Positions 8,801 through 46,411 of a stretch of DNA of 48,335 bases are shown piece after piece. Position 1 is the stretch's first letter. The number at the start of each line of letters is the position of its first letter. The stretch lies in the IMG/VR virus record IMGVR_UViG_3300000292_000047, one strand, 5' to 3'. Source of the stretch: a virus. Lineage: Duplodnaviria; Heunggongvirae; Uroviricota; Caudoviricetes. Made by a program: the position numbers and the translations under genes. The notes beneath the pieces are model-generated. The model worked only from the letters and a program-made list of their open reading frames with translations. It was not told where the DNA came from and ran no database searches.

Positions 8801-9033
8801 CAGCGCCCCTTACCATTGATAAAGAGGTTGAACTCGTTGATTAACTGGACATACATGCTTCTGGCCGCGTAGTTCTTTGCCAGCTCTTTACGGGATGAGA
8901 TCCCGCAAAACTCACGCAGAATCACAGAGGCCTCAGAACTGTTTGAAACGTTCTTCCCTGTTTTACTGGTCAGAAAGCGCCAGAATTGGGGATTCTGGCA
9001 ATGCATCGCAGCACCGCGAACATAACTACTCAT
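8800..9033 (-). CDS. Hypothetical protein
   Basis: 77 aa, ATG verified, operon context. Confidence 0.4.
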   Translation of the reverse strand: MSSYVRGAAMHCQNPQFWRFLTSKTGKNVSNSSEASVILREFCGISSRKELAKNYAARSMYVQLINEFNLFINGKGR

Positions 9034-9545
9034 TGATGGCCCCCGTCATTTCTGGTGCTTTTCACCGTGCGGCTTCTTAAAAACCTGCCATCACGAACAA
9101 CAGACACTTCTCGTTTACCCAACCTCATTTCACGGCGGTAACATTCAGAAAATGCCTCGTCCGGCATCATATAAATGCGACGCTTCGCCTCCGTATCCAG
9201 AAGGGAACGGCTTGGGGTTACATATAAGAACGACTCATCAATAGGGACAAAACCACGAGCAAGAATTGCTGGCAGAATACCAGGAAGAACGCAGAAAACA
9301 GCTCCACGATGCAGCAACATCTGGTACTCCATGACCTCCGTAATCCCCGTAACGACTGTTACGGTGTCACGTCTGTTACGGCTGGCAACCAGTCGCTGCA
9401 CACCTCCAATTTTCTGCTCTACAGATAGACGTTTGCTATCGTTATCAATATGATCGATAACAAATCCTTTAATCGTTTGATCAAGGTAGTGCACCACCTG
9501 CGATTGAATCTGGTGATTATCACCAAAGAAGGCCAGAATCATCAT
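9030..9545 (-). CDS. Hypothetical protein
   Basis: 171 aa, ATG verified, ATGA coupling with upstream gene. Confidence 0.45.
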   Translation of the reverse strand: MMILAFFGDNHQIQSQVVHYLDQTIKGFVIDHIDNDSKRLSVEQKIGGVQRLVASRNRRDTVTVVTGITEVMEYQMLLHRGAVFCVLPGILPAILARGFVPIDESFLYVTPSRSLLDTEAKRRIYMMPDEAFSECYRREMRLGKREVSVVRDGRFLRSRTVKSTRNDGGHQ

Positions 9546-10036
9546 TCCTCAAGCCTCCCAAGTGCTGAACGCCGGGCGTTGCTAATCTCCTTATGAATCA
9601 GCTCGATATCGCTGGAATCTTTATTCTTAAGCTCCAGCACGGTAATCGCATCACGAACCTCTGAAACGGTTACGTGTGAGTGTTTCCAGCGAGCAATGAA
9701 TCGCGGACCGCGTAGATTGCAACGCTCCGCAGGCATCCCCAGCTCAGAGAAAACCGCTTTCAGCCTTGATAAGCAGTTAACAGGGAGATTCCCTTTGATC
9801 TTGTTCTGCCGAACCGATGTGCCATCGCTACGCTGGCGCTGACGTTCGGCAAAATCTGCCGCCCATTGCTGGACGTTAATCCGGCCTTCCGAATACGCCA
9901 CCAGCAGCGTCAGGTTATCCGCACGAGGGAATCTCTCGAAGCGATACCAGGCACCAATCAGTGATGACGTAAAGCCAAACTTTCTGGCAACACCAATTTG
10001 GCCTCCATTTTCGTCAACCCACTCCTGAAAGGTCAT
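9542..10036 (-). CDS. Putative early regulator (first gene divergent from repressor; Cro/CII position)
   Basis: 164 aa; ATG 10034-10036 with GGAG SD; N-terminal HTH-like GVARKFGFTSSLIGAW. Confidence 0.35.
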   Translation of the reverse strand: MTFQEWVDENGGQIGVARKFGFTSSLIGAWYRFERFPRADNLTLLVAYSEGRINVQQWAADFAERQRQRSDGTSVRQNKIKGNLPVNCLSRLKAVFSELGMPAERCNLRGPRFIARWKHSHVTVSEVRDAITVLELKNKDSSDIELIHKEISNARRSALGRLEE

Positions 10037-10054
10037 TTAACGAACTCCAGTTAA

Positions 10055-10172
10055 ACCACGATATGTGGTATTAAAACCACATATCGTGAGTTTTTCAATG
10101 GGCGAAACAAAAAATAACCTTCTATTTGTGGTCCACCTCTCGTCTTACCATGTGAAAACCACTAAATGTGGT
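10055..10172. promoter_or_regulatory. Immunity operator region with three ACCAC-N5-GTGGT-type sites between divergent genes
   Basis: accacgatatgtggt (10055-10069), accacatatcgtgag (10076-10090), accactaaatgtggt (10158-10172). Confidence 0.6.
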
Positions 10173-10209
10173 AATGTATAAATAACCCACCATTCACGAT
10201 TGATGAGAC

Positions 10210-10866
10210 ATGAAAAGCAACGACGAGAACATCAAGAAAGAAATAGGTCTGCGCATTCAGACTCTACGGAAACAATCCGGCATGACTGCCGGAGATCTCC
10301 AGCAAGTCACTGGAATAGGCTTAAGCACCTTGCAGAACTATGAGGCCGGATTAAGACAACCATCTATACCTGCCATCAAGAAAATCGCGCACGCCCTGAA
10401 AGCATCAGCGCCTTATATCGCGTGCTTAACAGATAACCCGTTCCCACCCCAGAATACTAACGCTCCTGTTATTCCTGGGCTTGTAGCTATAAAAAATGAC
10501 ATAGCATCGCACGCCGGAGAAAAGCCAGTGCTGGCGATAGAACAGGAGATTCTACGAAGCAAGAACATCAACCCATCGTCTCTGTCAGTTCTCCAGAGCA
10601 ACGATGAGTTAATGTCACCAACAATATCCCCTGGCTCCCAAGTCCTGATTAATACAGACGATACAGAGATTCATGAGGGGATCTATGCCCTTGAAGACAG
10701 AAATGGCCTGGTTGTTTTGAGGCACTGTAGAGTCATACCGGGTGACAATGCTGTTATGCTGTCAACCGAAAGGGATGCTGAAATGAACACTAAGCATCTG
10801 AATAACGAGGAATTTAAGCGTTATAAAGTTCTTGGCCGCGTAGTTAGTGTTGTCAACTGGTTATGA
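10210..10866 (+). CDS. CI-type phage repressor (XRE HTH + S24 LexA-like peptidase domain)
   Basis: 218 aa; N-terminal HTH (LQQVTGIGLSTLQNYEAG), C-terminal S24-like region; divergent from early operon. Confidence 0.75.
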   Translation: MKSNDENIKKEIGLRIQTLRKQSGMTAGDLQQVTGIGLSTLQNYEAGLRQPSIPAIKKIAHALKASAPYIACLTDNPFPPQNTNAPVIPGLVAIKNDIASHAGEKPVLAIEQEILRSKNINPSSLSVLQSNDELMSPTISPGSQVLINTDDTEIHEGIYALEDRNGLVVLRHCRVIPGDNAVMLSTERDAEMNTKHLNNEEFKRYKVLGRVVSVVNWL

Positions 10867-10908
10867 TACACAGCACGGCGAAAGCCGTGCATTTCTACGC
10901 TCAAAAAA

Positions 10909-10923
10909 ACCACATTTTGTGGT
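10909..10923. promoter_or_regulatory. Fourth operator-like palindrome downstream of repressor gene
   Basis: accacattttgtggt, same ACCAC-N5-GTGGT architecture; preceded by GNRA-loop hairpin 10872-10889. Confidence 0.5.
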
Positions 10924-10958
10924 TTTGACAACATGTAAAAGTATAAAAGAGGCTACGC

Positions 10959-11333
10959 ATGGAATTACATACAGCCAATAAAAACGAAACTCTGATCACT
11001 GCTGGAATCGAAATCCAAGCGTTGAACATAGCGATTGAGTGTATGTTATGCCAAATCATTGATAATGAGAAAGATATCGACTGGATAGAATCTATCCTTC
11101 ATCTGGCATCAGAACAAAAAGTCTGCCTCAAAACGGCCTTACAATACGATGTGCCAGCGATATCGAAGCTGTGCCAGCCATTGATGGCATATAACAGGGC
11201 TATTATTTCTGTATGCCTCATGATTCTTGATGAAAACACCCCTCTTAGCGACCGCTCAGAAGCTGCTCTCACCCTCTCACGTAAACAGCGACAGCTAGCA
11301 AATCAACTGATATCAACGATAGCTGACCTCTGA
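10959..11333 (+). CDS. Hypothetical protein
   Basis: 124 aa; AAGAGG SD; followed by hairpin aagcgggc-taac-gcccgctt. Confidence 0.45.
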   Translation: MELHTANKNETLITAGIEIQALNIAIECMLCQIIDNEKDIDWIESILHLASEQKVCLKTALQYDVPAISKLCQPLMAYNRAIISVCLMILDENTPLSDRSEAALTLSRKQRQLANQLISTIADL

Positions 11334-11360
11334 CTGAAAGCGGGCTAACGCCCGCTTACA

Positions 11361-11460
11361 TGATTATAGATTTATATAATTATATAAAACGCTTTTCATC
11401 CGCCAAAAAGTTGGTTATGCTTACCTCGTTCTATAAATATAGATTTATAGAATTATATAA
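11361..11460. promoter_or_regulatory. AT-rich repeat block upstream of parA (candidate centromere/operator)
   Basis: ttatagatttatataattatataa and ctataaatatagatttatagaattatataa; same motif as in leader repeats. Confidence 0.55.
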
Positions 11461-11483
11461 CCAAACACATGGAGTCTCGACAA

Positions 11484-12137
11484 ATGACTATCTCTGTAGG
11501 TATTTTCAACGGAAAAGGCGGCGTAACCAAATCAACAATTGCCCGTGCTTTAGCAGTTGCTTATGCAAAGGCCGGCTGGAATGTATGCCTGATCGATATG
11601 GATGTGCTTAACGGAACGGTAACGCGTTGGGTACAACGCAGAATGGCCAACAATATCGAACCTGCAATCGCGGCGCAGCCGTGCGGCACGCCATCACAAG
11701 TCCAGAAAATCATCGAATCAGAAGTATACGACCTGGTTATCGTCGATGGCGGTGCCTACGCATCTGAATCAGTACCGAAGCTCTCTGAATTTCTGGATAT
11801 GGTTATTTTGCCAACCAGATTCTCTACCGATGACCTAGAAACCACCGTTAACACAGCTCACGGCATCGTTAAAAAGGGTGTGCCAATCAAGAAAATTTGC
11901 ATGGTGTTCTCAGGCGCGGCTGAAAACGAAGCCGACTACATTGAAGCCCAAGAGTACCTAGCTAATACGCCATACTTTGTTGTCGATAAGTACATTCCCC
12001 ACAAGCCAGCTCTGAGCAAAGCTCAGGATAAGGGCTTAAGCCTCATTGAATGCTCATACGTTGCGCCACGCAAAAAGGCAGACGACGTTATTCAGGGGAT
12101 TATCAACCAGCTTGAGGCTCTGACTACTGCCGCGTAA
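11484..12137 (+). CDS. parA: ParA/ParF-type partition ATPase (alternative ATG at 11469)
   Basis: Deviant Walker A GKGGVTKST; MinD/ParA fold; GGAG SD before ATG 11484. Confidence 0.8.
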   Translation: MTISVGIFNGKGGVTKSTIARALAVAYAKAGWNVCLIDMDVLNGTVTRWVQRRMANNIEPAIAAQPCGTPSQVQKIIESEVYDLVIVDGGAYASESVPKLSEFLDMVILPTRFSTDDLETTVNTAHGIVKKGVPIKKICMVFSGAAENEADYIEAQEYLANTPYFVVDKYIPHKPALSKAQDKGLSLIECSYVAPRKKADDVIQGIINQLEALTTAA

Positions 12138-12168
12138 TATATAATTATAGTTTTATAGATTTATATAA
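12136..12168. promoter_or_regulatory. AT-rich repeat block between parA and parG-like gene
   Basis: atataattatagttttatagatttatata. Confidence 0.5.
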
Positions 12169-12180
12169 GAGGGGATACAC

Positions 12181-12429
12181 ATGGCCGGACCATCAAAACC
12201 ACCAAAGAAGAACAGCAAAGGCGTACCGCCATCGATCGAACAACCGCAGGTTTTCGACCCGACTGAAACGCCAACCAGAACCAAATCAGGTGGGGCACAA
12301 ATGGCGTTTAACGTCGACCCTGAATTTAAACGCGAGTACAAAACGTTCGCCAGCTCAATGGATATGTCATTGAAAGAAGTGCTGACAAAATCTTTTGAGT
12401 TACTCAAGGCTCAATACAACCAGAAGTAA
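12181..12429 (+). CDS. ParG-like ribbon-helix-helix centromere-binding protein
   Basis: 82 aa immediately after ParA; basic unstructured N-terminus then predicted beta-strand/helix segment; AGAGGGG SD. Confidence 0.55.
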   Translation: MAGPSKPPKKNSKGVPPSIEQPQVFDPTETPTRTKSGGAQMAFNVDPEFKREYKTFASSMDMSLKEVLTKSFELLKAQYNQK

Positions 12430-12491
12430 GAGAAGGTGACGGCCTCCAGCGCCAACTGTTGGCCGTCGCGACACAACAAGGGGAATTTGTT

Positions 12492-12641
12492 ATGTCCGAG
12501 CAACAATATACACGGTTACTGAAAGCTCGTCTAACCGACCTCAAACGGCTGCAAGCTGGTCGCTTATTTGCCCTGCTATCCACCAGGCCAGAATGGGTAC
12601 GTGAAGCAGTTCTGAAAGGCTTAATGCGCTCCAGCGTTTAA
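12492..12641 (+). CDS. Small hypothetical protein
   Basis: 49 aa from ATG 12492 with AAGGGGAA SD. Confidence 0.3.
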   Translation: MSEQQYTRLLKARLTDLKRLQAGRLFALLSTRPEWVREAVLKGLMRSSV

Positions 12642-12650
12642 ATTCAACCA

Positions 12651-12674
12651 TAAAAAAGGCCCCCGAAGGGGCCT
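12651..12674. terminator. Hairpin terminator, usable on minus strand (bidirectional candidate)
   Basis: aggcccc-cgaa-ggggcct perfect stem; A-run on plus gives U-run on minus. Confidence 0.6.
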
Positions 12675-12679
12675 AATCG

Positions 12680-12802
12680 CTACTTGCTGCTAATGTTTAT
12701 CGTCACATTCAGAGCGTTATCAGTAATCTTCCAACCCTCCCCATGTGGCGTAAACAAAGCCCCAGTAACAACGATAAAAATACACATACAGTATTTTTTC
12801 AT
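12680..12802 (-). CDS. Small hydrophobic peptide (40 aa), candidate type I toxin-like or exported peptide
   Basis: MKKYCMCIFIVVTGALFTPHGEGWKITDNALNVTINISSK; ATG inside track ORF 12680-12862; terminator immediately downstream. Confidence 0.3.
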   Translation of the reverse strand: MKKYCMCIFIVVTGALFTPHGEGWKITDNALNVTINISSK

Positions 12803-13200
12803 TGTATGGCCCTTACAGGCCGTTTCACGGCATCCCCACCGACGAAAACAACGCGAGAGCAAGCACGGCTGCTTGTGCTTGCATGTACGGCAACGGAGAA
12901 TCCTCCCCTAAAGTCGGTGCCCGGGTGCGAATCGGCGGGAAGGTCCACAGGTATTTTACGATTATTTTAAGATTAGTAATAGGAAAGAAATTAAACGAAA
13001 AAACTCGTTTATTTTCACAAAATCAGTAACCTACCCACAATCTGTGAGTTTGCAGGCACAACAAGAATCACAATTTTTTGAAGCATAATAGTGGACTATT
13101 ATTACCTTTTGGGTAAAATTAACTTGCTGCTTGTGCTTGCGTGGTTGTTTATACAACGACGTTATGCTGAAAGGACCGCGAATCCGATCAGCACGAAAGA

Positions 13201-13227: not shown

Positions 13228-13309
13228 TTTCTGCCTACCAATAAACCCACGCTATGTGGTTGTCTCTGTTAAAATCCCGCCGTATTGACATGAATGCGCC
13301 ATTGGTGGA

Positions 13310-13392
13310 CACTTTCCGAGCCGTAGCAAAATCTACGGTCGGGATTGGAACCCCGTAGACACAATGGCGCATACCGCGTTAGCGGTTTTTTT
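13310..13392 (+). ncRNA. Candidate small structured RNA ending at intrinsic terminator, upstream of antirepressor operon
   Basis: TTGACA at 13285-13290; hairpins ccgtag/ctacgg; terminator accgc-gtta-gcggt + T7 (13373-13392); no ORF. Confidence 0.3.
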
Positions 13393-13558
13393 ATGCGTAA
13401 AGCACTGCTACACCCAAATTATGGTGGGGCGTGCGGGGGAGTCGTAAGACTCGCCGGTTCGTCATTGTGTCCGGTAGTTCCAACCCTGCACGTCTCACCA
13501 CCCAATGATTGGAACCTGACGGTGGTGAGTATCCTTAACCTTTAAGGGAATCATCACA

Positions 13559-13750
13559 ATGACAAACCTACCCCATGACTATTACGTCAACCTCGTAAAG
13601 ATCCTTCTCAAGAAAGCCTCATACGCCGATAAATTCCGCCTGGCTGAAATCATCGAGCGCGAAGCTATGCGCATCGCCAGCAACGATAACGCTGTTTCTG
13701 ACGCAAAAATCTCCCTCGTAACCAAAGTTGTTATGGGAGGTGCAAAATGA
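13559..13750 (+). CDS. Small protein translationally coupled to antirepressor
   Basis: 63 aa; stop overlaps ant start (ATGA). Confidence 0.45.
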   Translation: MTNLPHDYYVNLVKILLKKASYADKFRLAEIIEREAMRIASNDNAVSDAKISLVTKVVMGGAK

Positions 13751-14898
13751 AAACGCTTCCGATCGTTAACACCCTACAGCCTATCCTGCATAATCAGATT
13801 CCAGTAATCACAACTGAGCTACTCGCCCGCCTTTATGGAACAGAAGCAATCCGTATACAGCAAAATCACCATGAAAATAAAACTCGGTTCATTGAGGGGA
13901 AGCACTTCTTTAAAGCTGTTGGTGATGAACTCAAAAATTTGCGACTAGTTTTAAACGAGTCACAAAATGAGGTGCAAATTTCCCCCAAAACTCGCTCTCT
14001 CATCCTCTGGACAGAACGCGGGGCTGCACGTCACGCCAAAATGCTTGAAACTAACCAAGCGTGGGATGTGTTCGAACGGCTGGAAGACTGCTATTTCAAC
14101 CAGAACGCGCAAACGGCCGCGACCGTTACCGTCTCGCCAAACAATCCTCGTGAGGTTGTCGATACGCTCAACGCCAAACCGATGTTTTACATTAAGGTGT
14201 GCAACAACGAGCCACTCACAACCTCAGCCGATGTTGCCCAGGCATTCAGCACCACAAACAATTCCATCGTTATGGCCATCGATGCGTTACGCATTCCTCG
14301 TACAGCTGCGGCACGTCATTTCTTTAAAGAGCAACGACCGCTGGAAGGAAGCGACCGCGAAATAACAATCTATCGCATGACAAAAGACGGATTTACCTTG
14401 CTCATGGAAAGTATCGACGGTCCAGGCGTGAAAGATATCAAGCTGGCCTACATTGAAGCCTTTAACGCTATCAGCAGCGTGTTAAAAACACAGTACGAGC
14501 GTGATCTGGCTAAACGACTGTACCAGGAAAAAACGATTATCCGCGCGGCAACAGAGCATAATCGGCTATTAACAGAACCGAAATACAGGAAGGAACTAAT
14601 CAAGGAGTTTGACAAGGCAACAGGGAAAACCAAAGCGGCGCTAAATCTGCCAGCAATGACTCAGGAAAATGTGATATCAGCCTTACTTCTTGATCTGCTC
14701 AGAAACGCCAGAGCACTTATCAGCTTTGACGAAAACCTGAATCCTCAGCTCAAGCTACTACCACCGACAGGCAAAGTAGTCGACCAGGCTGATCACAACA
14801 GCATACTCAGCGTACTGGATGCAAACCTGCCAGCCAGGACACTACAGGATCTGATAAAAACATGTGCTGATAAGCTGGCACAGAAGAGCAGACCATAA
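13747..14898 (+). CDS. Antirepressor-type regulatory protein (ORF6N-like N-terminus + Rha domain)
   Basis: 383 aa; ITIYRMTKDGFTLLMESIDGPGVKDIKLAYIEAFN matches Rha pattern; GGAGG SD. Confidence 0.7.
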   Translation: MKTLPIVNTLQPILHNQIPVITTELLARLYGTEAIRIQQNHHENKTRFIEGKHFFKAVGDELKNLRLVLNESQNEVQISPKTRSLILWTERGAARHAKMLETNQAWDVFERLEDCYFNQNAQTAATVTVSPNNPREVVDTLNAKPMFYIKVCNNEPLTTSADVAQAFSTTNNSIVMAIDALRIPRTAAARHFFKEQRPLEGSDREITIYRMTKDGFTLLMESIDGPGVKDIKLAYIEAFNAISSVLKTQYERDLAKRLYQEKTIIRAATEHNRLLTEPKYRKELIKEFDKATGKTKAALNLPAMTQENVISALLLDLLRNARALISFDENLNPQLKLLPPTGKVVDQADHNSILSVLDANLPARTLQDLIKTCADKLAQKSRP

Positions 14899-19263: not shown

Positions 19264-20112
19264 TTAATGTTGGAGTGATTTCCAGGTCTTTCTTAACCTG
19301 TTATAACGCTGCTCAACGAGGGATCGTAAATATGCAAGGTCAGCACCAGGATACATGCCATCAGCAAATTCCTGACTAACCTCTCTGGTGATTTGATGAC
19401 GAAGTTCGGCCTCTCCCTTTTCCCGAACAAGACGCGCAGCTCTCTCCGCTGCTTTCTGTTTTGCCTTTATCTCTCTGGCCGTCTTCCTCTGACGCCATAC
19501 ATTCTCCATCTGCTCCTGAATAACAATACGCTTATAATCAGCCTCCGTTATCGCTTTTTTAAGCCGTTCGCTATTCTTCGCATTGAAGTAATTAAGTTTC
19601 TGGCTAACCGCACGTCTCCATGCTTGTTCAGTAATACCAACGGTTTCCAGCAGTTGATCACGAATCTCTATTTTCGCTGGCCAATACTGTTTATTCACCC
19701 GATCCCAGCGACGTTCATAATCAATAAAACCTAACGCTTTCAGTTGCGACAACGCCCTTGTACAGCGCGTTATAGACTTGTTCCCAGCTTCGGATACGGT
19801 AGACAGGCCGCAAAAATCAGCCAACGCCTCAGCACTAGCCAGAACCCGCTTAGAAATGATGTTTACATGGTGCAAAATCGCAGCGATCACAGCATTAATC
19901 GCCCGACGACGATGCTCGTTTATCCGGCGCTTCCGCTCTGACGGTTGATTAACGTAGAACGCAACCTCACACGTAAGATCACGCCCATTAATGCGCTGTA
20001 AAGCATCAGATAACACCAGCGGCAGCTTGTGCGTATGGTGCTTTGGAGGCTGGAACTCCGGCGACAAATTACAAACGTAAGCTGAACGTAGAGACGGCAT
20101 TGGTCTATCCAT
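19264..20112 (-). CDS. repA: IncFII-type (RepFIIA-like) replication initiator RepA; in-frame upstream ATG at 20244 possible
   Basis: RRRAINAVI and GLSTVSEAGNKSITRCTRALSQLKALGFIDYE align by eye with R100 RepA1 (RRRAIDALL, GLATESAAGKLSITRATRALTFLSELGLITYQ); ATG 20110-20112. Confidence 0.7.
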   Translation of the reverse strand: MDRPMPSLRSAYVCNLSPEFQPPKHHTHKLPLVLSDALQRINGRDLTCEVAFYVNQPSERKRRINEHRRRAINAVIAAILHHVNIISKRVLASAEALADFCGLSTVSEAGNKSITRCTRALSQLKALGFIDYERRWDRVNKQYWPAKIEIRDQLLETVGITEQAWRRAVSQKLNYFNAKNSERLKKAITEADYKRIVIQEQMENVWRQRKTAREIKAKQKAAERAARLVREKGEAELRHQITREVSQEFADGMYPGADLAYLRSLVEQRYNRLRKTWKSLQH

Positions 20113-20156: not shown

Positions 20157-20237
20157 TGTCGAGGCGCCCATGGATTGTTGTTGTTGGTTTTCCGTGGATG
20201 TCGCAAGAAGCCCGCAGATTTATCTGCGGGCTTTTTG
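20157..20237 (+). ncRNA. CopA-like antisense RNA countertranscript to repA leader
   Basis: TTGCGT-N16-TATAAT at 20123-20150; strong terminator gcccgcaga-ttta-tctgcgggc + T5 at 20210-20236. Confidence 0.55.
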
Positions 20238-20710
20238 TTTCCATATCTGGTCACTTTCCAACCAGACACCCACAATCATAACCACGTTACGTGGTTTTAA
20301 GAGAACTCTACCACAACACTTTCGGTCATGCACGAAGTCTCTCACTGATCGAACGATAATCCACCAGTAAAAGGATCTAAATTGGATCTCGTTTTGCGAG
20401 CATCATACTACTGGCCTAACTCCAGTCAATGATTCCCAGCCAGAAACCTGCGGTAAACTCATCGTTCAGCAATATGCTGTCCGGCTTCAAAGATAAGGTG
20501 ACATCATCCCTTAACAGCGCGGCCAGTTCAGTTAAAGGGCTGTTCTGATTTAATGCTGGCCACTCATACCTGGTAATAAGTGGTCAGTCTTAACACTCAC
20601 CATTTGATTGCACCCGTGTTGACGATTTGTTACTGGATATCAGACACGCTGGATAGCCAGTAGAAACATACCATTAAAATTATTACAATAATTGGTCACA
20701 TGATTATCTT

Positions 20711-27830: not shown

Positions 27831-28832
27831 TTAATACCCATTAATTACTCTTCGGACATCAATCGAGGTGGTATAACCACTAGTCCCAATTGAATGCACA
27901 GCTTTCGATATAAGATATTTTCCAGAAAATGAACCGAATCCCTCCAGATTTATAGTTACACCAGCTACCAATCTGGTGTCTCCAACCAATACTAAAGATC
28001 CGGTATTTTGATATCTATTTTTAAGCCGCAAAGCAGCCTTTGCCTTACGTTTTGCTTCATCTAAATTAGCTACCAGTTTTCTTATCTTAAGATTCGACCC
28101 TTCTTCTACGGATGGATCTACCCAAGTATACGAAAGCGACTTTCTTTTTTTAGGTACGCGATATTTGCACGTGCAACTTTTATACAAATCTGTAGATTGT
28201 GTGCTAAAGCTATATCTGATTATCTCATCAATACCTAACGTAAGCGTAGCGATAGGATCTTTTTGCTCAAACATCTCTTGAGCAAATATTATTAATTGGC
28301 TATCAGTGACCTTTAACGACAACCCTTCATCCTGGCAAAGTCGATGGAGAAATTTTAAATCGCTTTCCTCCATTTGATCTTCACGCGCATAATATGGATT
28401 ACTATCACCATCAATAAGAAACAACAGTTCAAGGTTAGCTAATTTAGCTATAGAAGTTGCTATATCTTTAAGAGTTGTTTTTTCCCATGCATTACTTTTT
28501 AAATCACGTCTAATGCCTGATGAAACAGGAACAGAAACAGCAGTTACCTCAACCACAGAAGGTGGTCCAGAGCAAGTTATGCCATCTACCTGGAATTTCC
28601 CGCACTCAAGGACGATTTGATTTATAGGCTTAAAGCTCAAATCAATAAAATCACCCTTTTTAGGTGTCCAGTCTCCAGACCATTTCCCATCATCATTTTT
28701 TAATATAATAGAAATATCATCGACCTGACCATCTTCATTATCTGTATAAGACATTGACAAAACATCAGGTGACATATGAGCGGTAATATTTACATTCTGA
28801 TATATAACATCAAAAAGCGTTTTACGTAACAC
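27831..28832 (-). CDS. Late control D-like tail/baseplate hub protein
   Basis: 333 aa following tape measure and X-like gene. Confidence 0.6.
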   Translation of the reverse strand: MLRKTLFDVIYQNVNITAHMSPDVLSMSYTDNEDGQVDDISIILKNDDGKWSGDWTPKKGDFIDLSFKPINQIVLECGKFQVDGITCSGPPSVVEVTAVSVPVSSGIRRDLKSNAWEKTTLKDIATSIAKLANLELLFLIDGDSNPYYAREDQMEESDLKFLHRLCQDEGLSLKVTDSQLIIFAQEMFEQKDPIATLTLGIDEIIRYSFSTQSTDLYKSCTCKYRVPKKRKSLSYTWVDPSVEEGSNLKIRKLVANLDEAKRKAKAALRLKNRYQNTGSLVLVGDTRLVAGVTINLEGFGSFSGKYLISKAVHSIGTSGYTTSIDVRRVINGY

Positions 28833-45788: not shown

Positions 45789-46411
45789 CAGCACACCTCC
45801 CCAGCCAGCAATGCGGATACAAATCCGATATAGCTGCCATTATCATCAACATAACGAGACACCGCGCAGTCAAAACGATCCGCTTCCTCATCCGTTGCCG
45901 GGATTTTATGACCTCCAAATGACAGGTACTGAACTTTTACGCCTGATTTGGCCTCATCCTTCTCAAATGGGATATCCATACCCTCTGTGTCATCGTAGAC
46001 CGCCGCACTCAATAAGTTATCCAGTTCGCGCTGAGTAAAACCAATTGAGTCCAGAGCAAAATCATCGGCCGCAAGATCTGCAAGCTCCGCGCTTAACAAC
46101 TCTTCATCCCAACCAGCATTCAGCGGAATACGGTTGTCGGCCAGACGATATGCCTTCTTCTGATTCTCCGTTAGCCCAGCCAGAACAATGCAGGGAACAT
46201 CATCCATCCCCAACTGAGTGGCCGCAGCAATTCGACCATGACCAGCAATTACAACGTTGTTCTCGTCTATCAGGATCGGATTAGTCCATCCGTACTCCTG
46301 TATGCTGGCAACAATCTGATCTACCTGCTCCACGGAGTGTGTGCGAGCGTTCTTTTCATAACCAATCAACACAGAAAGTGGTAAAGAAACCACATTAAGA
46401 TGTTTTGTCAT
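45788..46411 (-). CDS. ParB-like nuclease domain protein
   Basis: 207 aa; VIAGHGRIAAA; shares C-terminal region with 42531-43121. Confidence 0.7.
   Translation of the reverse strand: MTKHLNVVSLPLSVLIGYEKNARTHSVEQVDQIVASIQEYGWTNPILIDENNVVIAGHGRIAAATQLGMDDVPCIVLAGLTENQKKAYRLADNRIPLNAGWDEELLSAELADLAADDFALDSIGFTQRELDNLLSAAVYDDTEGMDIPFEKDEAKSGVKVQYLSFGGHKIPATDEEADRFDCAVSRYVDDNGSYIGFVSALLAGEVC

Follow-up and report, generated by a model that had tools for sequence, protein, structure and literature searches.

Dyads of the form ACCAC-N5-GTGGT are probable operators of a lambda-like repressor at the immunity, repA and antirepressor loci of an enterobacterial phage-plasmid

In lambda-type switches, the repressor CI and Cro share operators, and the S24-type C-terminal region of CI oligomerises. 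In P1, operators of the C1 repressor (Op51, Op53) are found at the c4-antirepressor operon and at a replication function, and in the plasmid R1 the CopB protein acts upstream of the CopA/CopT region of the IncFII repA gene. The CB repressor of N15 and phiKO2 binds three OR sites and, at the promoter of repA, two OL sites, and it reduces copy number; the N15 protein lacks the residues for RecA-dependent cleavage, and phiKO2 CB has been reported to form tetramers and probably octamers (PMC4997575). The Cro proteins of N15, phiKO2 and PY54 bind one OR site and none at repA, CB being the protein that binds all five operators (PMC4997575). The locus described here belongs to a 48,335-bp stretch of viral DNA (IMG/VR record IMGVR_UViG_3300000292_000047; the whole of this stretch is referred to as the window), in which dyads of the form ACCAC-N5-GTGGT lie on both sides of the gene for a CI-like repressor of 218 amino acids. 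This immunity design, in the style of lambda, N15 and P1, is familiar but undescribed for the phage-plasmid family of the window. Judged by their sequence and conservation, the repeats are very probably real binding sites of a lambda-like repressor. The most useful addition made by the analysis is that this operator family reaches the promoters of repA and of an antirepressor operon.

An original prediction had listed four sites as an immunity operator family, three between the repressor gene and the divergent early operon and a fourth beyond the repressor gene. All four are present, those at 10055, 10158 and 10909 as exact matches and that at 10076 in degenerate form. The list is incomplete, as it lacks two conserved members, one near repA (20281) and the other by the antirepressor operon (13246). 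The features of the immunity locus to which the argument refers throughout are the following.

10055–10069, no strand: O1, ACCACgatatGTGGT; exact match; 19 nt separate it from the start codon (ATG) of the leftward early gene; downstream of the putative early -10
10076–10090, no strand: O2, ACCACatatcGTGAG; degenerate, with two mismatches; fills the spacer of the putative early promoter
10128–10132, no strand: a lone half-site, GTGGT, invariant in the alignment and preceded by a conserved AACCTTC; about midway between O2 and O3
10158–10172, no strand: O3, ACCACtaaatGTGGT; exact match; overlaps the putative promoter of the repressor gene itself; half-sites identical in 11 of 11 loci
10210–10866, + strand: CI-like repressor, 218 amino acids; HTH_3 N-terminal domain and a sub-threshold S24-like C-terminal domain
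10909–10923, no strand: O4, ACCACattttGTGGT; exact match; between the repressor terminator and the gene starting at 10959

The exact motif occurs five times in the window, compared with an expectation of 0.02, and none of 100 shuffled sequences reached five. Three of these matches fall in the immunity locus (10055–10069, ACCACGATATGTGGT; 10158–10172, ACCACTAAATGTGGT; 10909–10923, ACCACATTTTGTGGT), and the other two, at 20281–20295 and 28552–28566, were absent from the original list. O2 (ACCACATATCGTGAG, that is, ACCAC-N5-GTGAG) departs from the motif at two positions, both in its right half, and repeats O1 in inverted orientation. A longer left arm, AAACCAC, is common to all four listed sites.

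The strongest support for the operator family comes from the comparison with related loci. Relatives were gathered through the protein database, contigs encoding homologues and IMG/VR, and a scan of genome contigs with the repressor protein found no relatives. The comparison set consists of 10 syntenic relatives whose repressors are 60–67% identical to that of the window, giving 11 loci when the window is included. Residues 12–49 of the repressor, which form the helix-turn-helix, are almost entirely invariant in 12 homologues even though these are 60–67% identical overall, and the repressors of the 10 relatives should thus recognise one DNA sequence. The sites follow this expectation, with near-invariant half-sites and drifting spacers and flanks. 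In the divergent region from O1 to O3, invariant columns number 26 of 30 in the half-sites, 3 of 15 in the spacers and 27 of 128 in the rest of the intergenic sequence; for O4, the corresponding counts are 10/10, 0/5 and 23/77. The O4 spacer differs even among loci with 99–100% identical repressors (ATTTT, GCTTT, GATTT), and the arms stay constant. O1 has the form (A/C)CCAC-N5-GTGGT with an invariant right half (CCCAC in 6 relatives), O2 has the form ACCAC-N5-GTG(G/A)G with an invariant left half, and the starts of the two sites are 21 bp apart in the window and in 8 of the 8 relatives where both were scored. The stretch AACCTTC-N-GTGGT (10117–10132) is nearly invariant in the 11 loci and sits about 41 bp (about four helical turns) from both O2 and O3; its half-site is possibly a weak extra (half-)operator or a site for another protein. 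A hairpin formed by O1 and O2 was also considered. In the window lineage only, the two spacers are complementary, yielding a perfect 13-bp inverted repeat (10057–10088) followed by a T-run (-24.5 kcal/mol, z = -8.6), which a scan tool reports as terminator-like. As a selected feature this hairpin was rejected, because the O1 and O2 spacers of the relatives are not complementary; it is probably incidental or recent, and selection appears to act on the half-sites and not on RNA structure.

Furthermore, the motif differs with the type of repressor at homologous positions. The Citrobacter freundii locus L016 has the same synteny and a repressor only 27% identical to that of the window. Its divergent region carries sites with mostly ACTAC left halves, together with one ACCAC and one ACGAC paired with GTAGT, and the site ACTACaaaacGTAGC (ACTAC-N5-GTAGC) is found at the alignment columns of the 20281 site upstream of repA. 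Behind its repressor terminator lie two tandem sites, ACCACacagcGGGTC and ACTACatattGAGAA, and five IMG/VR loci related to L016 retain these sites. In L033, which represents a third immunity type, the repressor has 32% identity and two AACCAC-type sites directly follow the terminator. Tandem operator-like sites thus hold the place of O4 in the L016–L021 and L033 types, and the recurrence of sites at this place in three immunity groups indicates that an operator just behind the repressor terminator is a conserved design. One phage-plasmid backbone is seen with at least three immunity types (L016, 18780–19700; L017–L021; L033), whose repressors are 27–32% identical to that of the window. The half-sites observed across these types are ACCAC, ACTAC and ACGAC, with right arms that are often degenerate, and the series could be used to map determinants of specificity.

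The members of the family that lie outside the immunity locus are found at two operons, the first being that of the replication initiator.

19264–20100, - strand: repA, IncFII-type replication initiator; homologues carry PF02387 (IncFII_repA) and are named RepA
20281–20295, no strand: operator upstream of repA, ACCACgttacGTGGT; exact match; 181–195 nt upstream of the repA start

The repA start at 20100 was set by comparison with an annotated Salmonella repA. The operator is kept with identical arms in 4 of 4 ACCAC-type relatives checked, and its spacers vary (GTAAC in the window, GTTGT in L013, GATGC in L014, GATGT in L015). It sits just upstream of a CopA-like hairpin at 20211–20235 (GCCCGCAGA-TTTA-TCTGCGGGC plus a T-run on the + strand), which shows compensatory changes across relatives and looks like the terminator of a CopA-like antisense RNA. 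A strong promoter-like sequence, TTGACT-16-TATGAT (20429–20402), points toward repA from about 110 bp upstream of the operator, so that the operator could act on a second promoter or as a roadblock. Upstream of repA there is no open reading frame (ORF) of copB size. The repA leader was sought in unrelated plasmids as a repressor-less control, and was found at the DNA level only in the family of the window. A 60%-identical RepA chosen as a control proved to sit in another phage-plasmid with the same architecture, and this case became a test of the motif against repressor type.

The second such operon encodes a putative antirepressor.

13246–13260, no strand: operator-like site, CCCACgctatGTGGT; one mismatch; between a terminator-like hairpin with a T-run and the isrK/C4-antirepressor promoter region
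13320–13505, + strand: isrK-like RNA (13320–13392; Rfam isrK, 67.7 bits) and C4 antisense RNA (13417–13505; RF01695, 77.8 bits)

This site has the CCCAC form seen for O1 in the relatives. It is present in near-identical loci and occurs as ACCACaatgcGTGAT..GTGGT in L004, L006, L007 and L032. It lies upstream of the predicted isrK core promoter and is less certain than the repA site. The C4 RNA, which is found in the Salmonella relative too, is followed by a 63-amino-acid ORF and then by a 383-amino-acid putative antirepressor (13747–14898). Reading of its sequence places the latter putatively in the Rha/ORF6N group, and its counterparts in relatives are annotated as Rha family or match Phage_pRha. 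The isrK and C4 RNAs with these ORFs are an antirepressor control module of the P1 immI / Gifsy-1 isrK type.

At the immunity locus itself, the overlap of operators with promoters depends on the following features.

9542–10036, - strand: first divergent early gene, 164 amino acids; PHROG 7452, no annotated function; at the position of cro
10070–10098, - strand: putative early (lytic) promoter; -35 TTGAAA (10098–10093), a 17-nt spacer holding O2, -10 TTTAAT (10075–10070)
10169–10177, + strand: putative extended -10, TGGTAATGT, for transcription of the repressor gene; the TG lies within the right half of O3

The repressor N-terminus matches Pfam HTH_3 with 43 bits (cutoff 23; E = 4.5e-11) and PHROG 4, "transcriptional repressor" (E = 9.6e-27). 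Residues 113–212 score 18.4 bits for Peptidase_S24, below the cutoff of 23.3, and residues 110–214 match PHROG 6201, "CI-like repressor" (E = 2.9e-9); a sequence search of the PDB gave short generic helix-turn-helix matches only. On inspection and in the alignment of homologues, a Ser/Lys autocleavage dyad is not recognisable. The expected catalytic Ser of G-[DN]-S-M is an invariant Leu (D-x-L-M-x-P-T-I), and the region of the expected Lys reads L-R-H-C-R. The lack of this dyad and the presence of the isrK/C4 module suggest that induction proceeds via the antirepressor and not via RecA-dependent cleavage. The 164-amino-acid protein has no Pfam match and no sequence match in the PDB, and its position suggests a Cro-like role.

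The TTG of the early -35 is conserved in 11 of 11 loci, and the geometry of -35, operator-filled spacer, -10 and operator recurs in L016, where the scan tool calls the equivalent promoter (TTGATA-17-AATTAT). The TGGTAAnnT of the repressor promoter is invariant in the 11 loci, and its TGnTAnnnT geometry is found in two other immunity types (TGTTACGCT in L016–L020, TGGTAGCCT in L033). By this reading of the alignment, which has the support of the scan tool in L016 only, the early promoter would be blocked at O1 and O2, and autoregulation of the repressor gene would act through O3.

O4, for which the original prediction proposed control of the next gene and of the par operon beyond it, is set among three further elements.

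10873–10890, + strand: intrinsic terminator that ends the repressor transcript; GCACGGC-GAAA-GCCGTGC and a T-run after it; -15 kcal/mol, z = -4.8
10959–11333, + strand: gene following O4, 124 amino acids; PHROG 7632, function not known; conserved ribosome-binding site
11338–11357, + strand: GC hairpin after this gene; -15.8 kcal/mol, z = -5.0; sets the gene apart from the par region

O4 starts 43 nt past the stop codon of the repressor gene (10866) and ends 36 nt before the ATG at 10959, and it lies 30–45 nt upstream of the ATG of the next gene in all compared loci. This position makes control of gene 10959–11333 by O4 plausible. The 124-amino-acid product is confidently predicted by AlphaFold to be a four-helix bundle (predicted local distance difference test, pLDDT, 91.6); it has no Pfam match, and in a Foldseek search of the PDB its only matches were helical bundles, generic or designed, of which none reached E <= 0.001. 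Two promoter candidates near O4 were rejected. The TTGACA at 10925–10930, as a -35 for gene 10959, is lineage-specific and has no -10 partner. A leftward antisense promoter, in which the conserved TGTAAA is read as a TTTACA -35, would have its -10 in the variable operator spacer. The roles open to O4, which are not mutually exclusive, may be to repress a weak or atypical promoter, to block read-through of the repressor transcript and to form a loop to O3, 751 bp away.

Control of the par operon, in turn, is an unlikely part of the role of O4, to judge from the intervening sequence. The GC hairpin at 11338–11357, with a stem invariant in 8 loci and variable loops, stands between the two, and the par genes have their own conserved AT-rich repeats and no ACCAC. 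The hairpin is not called as a terminator by the scan tool and its T-run is weak, so that some read-through is possible. The AT-rich repeats, TATAGATTTATAnAATTATATAA, at 11360–11387 and 11433–11460, lie on either side of a putative parA promoter and are kept in relatives. Their probable role is that of centromere/operator in a system made up of a small ParA (217 amino acids) and an 82-amino-acid partner. In the ORF-poor stretch between the par genes and the antirepressor operon, a full-length match to the ryfA RNA is found at 12652–12948 on the - strand (Rfam RF00126, 141.8 bits). At ryfA loci, the product is the toxin, a small peptide, of a type I toxin-antitoxin pair, and the match may be a plasmid-stabilising module.

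The element from which the window derives can be placed through its close relatives. Positions 9000–12500 are 99–99.9% identical to dozens of circular non-mobilizable plasmids of 47–50 kb, the hosts of which are mostly Escherichia with a few from Salmonella and Klebsiella. The immunity region is 98–100% identical in at least 58 circular plasmids (about 47–50 kb; Escherichia and a few other enterobacteria) and three Yersinia pestis phages; these phages, vB_YpM_39, 41 and 44, are 98.7–98.9% identical to 9000–12500. The genes of the immunity region are mostly annotated as "hypothetical protein" in the matching plasmid and phage records. One of the closest plasmids contains capsid, portal, terminase and holin genes together with ParA, and members of the family have an IncFII-type repA, with tail genes present as well in a diverged Salmonella relative. 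The family has roughly 118 members, one of which, 48,488 bp long, is found in E. coli ATCC 25922 (NZ_CP009073.1). The combination of phage structural genes, ParA and repA on circular records indicates that the element is a circular phage-plasmid. It also carries a tRNA gene (1012–1084, - strand; Rfam tRNA, 65.8 bits).

A family with similar properties, described in a 2026 preprint, is p-p47, a family of E. coli phage-plasmids of 47–49 kb with RepA/CopA control and no typeable replicon, which has been linked to piperacillin-tazobactam heteroresistance via an increase in copy number (bioRxiv 10.64898/2026.08.19.745698). By size, host and RepA/CopA, the window appears to belong to this family. 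Exposure of p-p49 to mitomycin C or ciprofloxacin gave no induction, and 1 of 15 high-copy p-p49 mutants (DA81419) had a single-nucleotide polymorphism in a "potential transcriptional regulator" and not in the repA control region; the words repressor and operator are absent from the paper (bioRxiv 10.64898/2026.08.19.745698). The missing autocleavage residues are consistent with this lack of induction, if the window is indeed of that family. The DA81419 mutation is suggestive as a hint that the repressor sets copy number, the mutated gene not being named in the source. A literature search on the ACCAC motif or on immunity control in the phage-plasmid family of the window found nothing.

Taken as a whole, these observations argue that the dyads at O1–O4, repA and the antirepressor operon are likely to be operators of the 218-amino-acid repressor. 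In this mechanism, dimers of the CI-like protein (10210–10866) would bind the 15-bp dyads, the fuller form of which is AAACCAC-N5-GTGGTTT. O1 and O2, 21 bp or about two helical turns apart, bracket the early -10, and cooperative binding to them would shut the lytic operon. Binding to O3, over the extended -10 and the region upstream of it, would result in negative autoregulation of the repressor. O4, as an OL-type site, would stop transcription that enters the 124-amino-acid gene, whether from terminator read-through or from a weak local promoter, and may pair with O3 over about 750 bp. Finally, the operators at repA and at the C4-antirepressor operon would make replication and the expression of the antirepressor depend on the immunity state, in the manner of N15 and P1. 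An extension of this idea is that the prophage repressor has taken over the role of CopB at an IncFII repA and, bound to the conserved dyad that precedes the CopA/CopT region, sets the lysogenic copy number, with the antirepressor inactivating it and so releasing replication and an O4–O3 loop enclosing and autoregulating the repressor gene. This proposal is a tentative one; if true, it could account for the high-copy mutant DA81419.

Several observations weigh against the repressor as the protein that binds and regulates at all of these sites. The putative early promoter of the window is not called by the scan tool, because its -10, TTTAAT, has T instead of the usual A at position 2. A consensus scan, the 11-way alignment, L016 and L003 reveal no convincing conserved sigma-70 promoter between O4 and the ATG at 10959. 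The right halves of the post-terminator sites in L016 are degenerate. The site at 13246, with its one mismatch, has its centre about 68 bp before the predicted isrK start (about 13320), and the Salmonella relative L013 lacks it. Moreover, the 164-amino-acid early protein diverges in parallel with the repressor (42% identity in L016), and consequently the comparison cannot tell whether the repressor, the 164-amino-acid protein or both are the binder. The gene for this early protein occupies the cro position, and the N-terminal half of the protein is highly conserved in the ACCAC type and diverged in the ACTAC type, as would be expected if it were the main reader of the motif. This seems improbable, given that the protein has no Pfam or PDB sequence match to point to a DNA-binding fold, that CB and not Cro occupies all five operators in the N15/phiKO2/PY54 precedent, and that perfect dyads at the repressor, repA and antirepressor promoters suit a repressor that maintains lysogeny. 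By its likeness to N15 and phiKO2, the repressor is thus favoured over the 164-amino-acid protein.

The alternatives for O4 differ in weight. O4 might be purely auxiliary, without a promoter of its own, acting as a roadblock or looping to O3 around the repressor gene, in which case gene 10959 would not be a dedicated target. This has a real, if smaller, chance of being right. Consistent with it, no conserved -35/-10 pair separates O4 from the conserved ribosome-binding site, O3 and O4 are both single, perfect and fully invariant sites, and the C-terminal region of the repressor is of the S24-like type that oligomerises in lambda CI. The O3–O4 distance is likewise constant at 750–759 bp in the 11 loci, but a repressor gene of constant length accounts for this, and the distance does not count as separate evidence for looping. 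The constant closeness of O4 to the next ATG is more typical of an operator with a local target, and the two tandem sites that other immunity types have at this place are like a promoter-proximal OL. That the palindrome at 10909 is only an RNA hairpin, as part of the repressor terminator or as a bidirectional terminator, is very unlikely, and this alternative, which the original prediction itself had raised, fails. The palindrome can fold (AAAACCAC/GUGGUUUU, flanked by A/U runs; -9.3 kcal/mol), yet the fold is weak (z = -2.1, with 9 of 200 shuffles at least as stable) and a stronger terminator lies 19 nt upstream. This terminator, at 10873–10890, is kept in the 11 loci, where L011 shows a compensatory change and L010 has a G-U pair, and the scan tool calls the equivalent hairpin of the repressor gene a terminator in L003 and L016. 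The arms at 10909, on the other hand, are invariant in 11/11 loci, show no covariation and are identical to those of the promoter-embedded sites, and the same dyad is present at repA and O3, where a terminator is not expected. Based on this sequence comparison, O4 is an OL-like operator and not a terminator stem. The most remote alternative is that these palindromes arose by chance or are part of a different system, for example a par centromere or the iterons of RepA. What can be said for it is that not every match to the motif need be functional. The exact match at 28552–28566 (ACCACagaagGTGGT) lies inside a 333-amino-acid ORF (27831–28832, - strand), lacks A/T flanks and is not kept in the Salmonella relative, and two near-matches at 46368 and 46389, with 21-bp spacing, fall inside the N-terminus of an ORF whose translated sequence is ParB-like. 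None of the three has an equivalent in a whole-plasmid scan of the Salmonella relative, and, being inside ORFs, they were treated as chance; 28552 is probably a chance match, although it may act as a weak site within the gene. Where the six intergenic sites are concerned, this alternative is effectively refuted by the excess of matches over expectation, the constancy of the half-sites and the variation of the motif with repressor type. The different AT-rich repeats that the par region has of its own and the clustering of the motif at the immunity locus also speak against it.

With the repressor as the favoured binder, the operator motif defines a testable regulon, which comprises the repressor gene and the gene that follows it, the early and antirepressor operons, and repA. 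Copy number, and hence the dosage of resistance genes, is further predicted to rise when either the repressor or its operator at repA is lost. Because the logic is already known from lambda, N15 and P1, the value of these findings lies in annotation and in the experiments that they enable, and not in a new principle.

The closest models are the OR/OL switch of lambda and the CB system of N15. Like lambda, the locus has a repressor in which a helix-turn-helix is joined to a C-terminal region that is S24-like (here below the Pfam cutoff), several dyad operators that overlap both promoters between the divergently transcribed repressor and early genes, and a further operator region past the 3' end of the repressor transcription unit in the same direction, as OL lies beyond cI-rexAB. 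The operators are similarly dyads of odd length (15 bp here, 17 bp in lambda), and neighbours about two turns apart suit cooperative binding. Nevertheless, BLASTP against lambda CI was uninformative, with E about 1 and no detectable similarity, and the Ser/Lys autocleavage motif is not recognisable in the repressor of the window. The single O4 contrasts with three OL sites, there is no N-like gene and no clear PL-type promoter here, O3 lies over the extended -10 and the region upstream and not in an activating position like OR2, and the window has further operators kilobases away at repA and at the antirepressor operon.

These additional sites are reminiscent of other prophages. As in N15 and phiKO2, an operator lies upstream of repA, here by its presence in the sequence only, and RecA-cleavage residues are missing both from N15 CB and from the repressor of the window. 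N15 differs in that its plasmid is linear, its RepA is of another type and its operators are 16 bp long (T-A-(N)10-T-A), whereas the closest records to the window are circular (no search aimed at a protelomerase was made), with an IncFII-type replicon, a CopA-like antisense hairpin and ACCAC-N5-GTGGT operators, and a distance of 9.4 kb lies between the repressor gene and the site at repA, which in N15 are adjacent. A tblastn search with the repressor against 50,697 phage records had no N15, phiKO2 or PY54 among the best 40 of 138 records, and within these 40 the best matches outside the three Yersinia phages were Vibrio phage cI proteins of about 26% identity. With P1, the window shares operators scattered over a plasmid prophage, including the operon of the C4 antisense RNA and antirepressor and the control of replication, and a C4 RNA lies upstream of the putative Rha-type antirepressor. 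P1 C1, however, does not belong with the HTH_3 repressors, and its 17-bp site is asymmetric, in contrast to the symmetric 15-bp dyads of the window, and the immI-like site of the window has one mismatch and is not universal in the family. The control of the replicon itself resembles that of the IncFII plasmids R1 and NR1, in which CopB acts at a protein operator upstream of the CopA/CopT region of repA. The difference is that the presumed binder here is a prophage repressor encoded 9.4 kb away, an arrangement that would couple replication to the choice between lysis and lysogeny.

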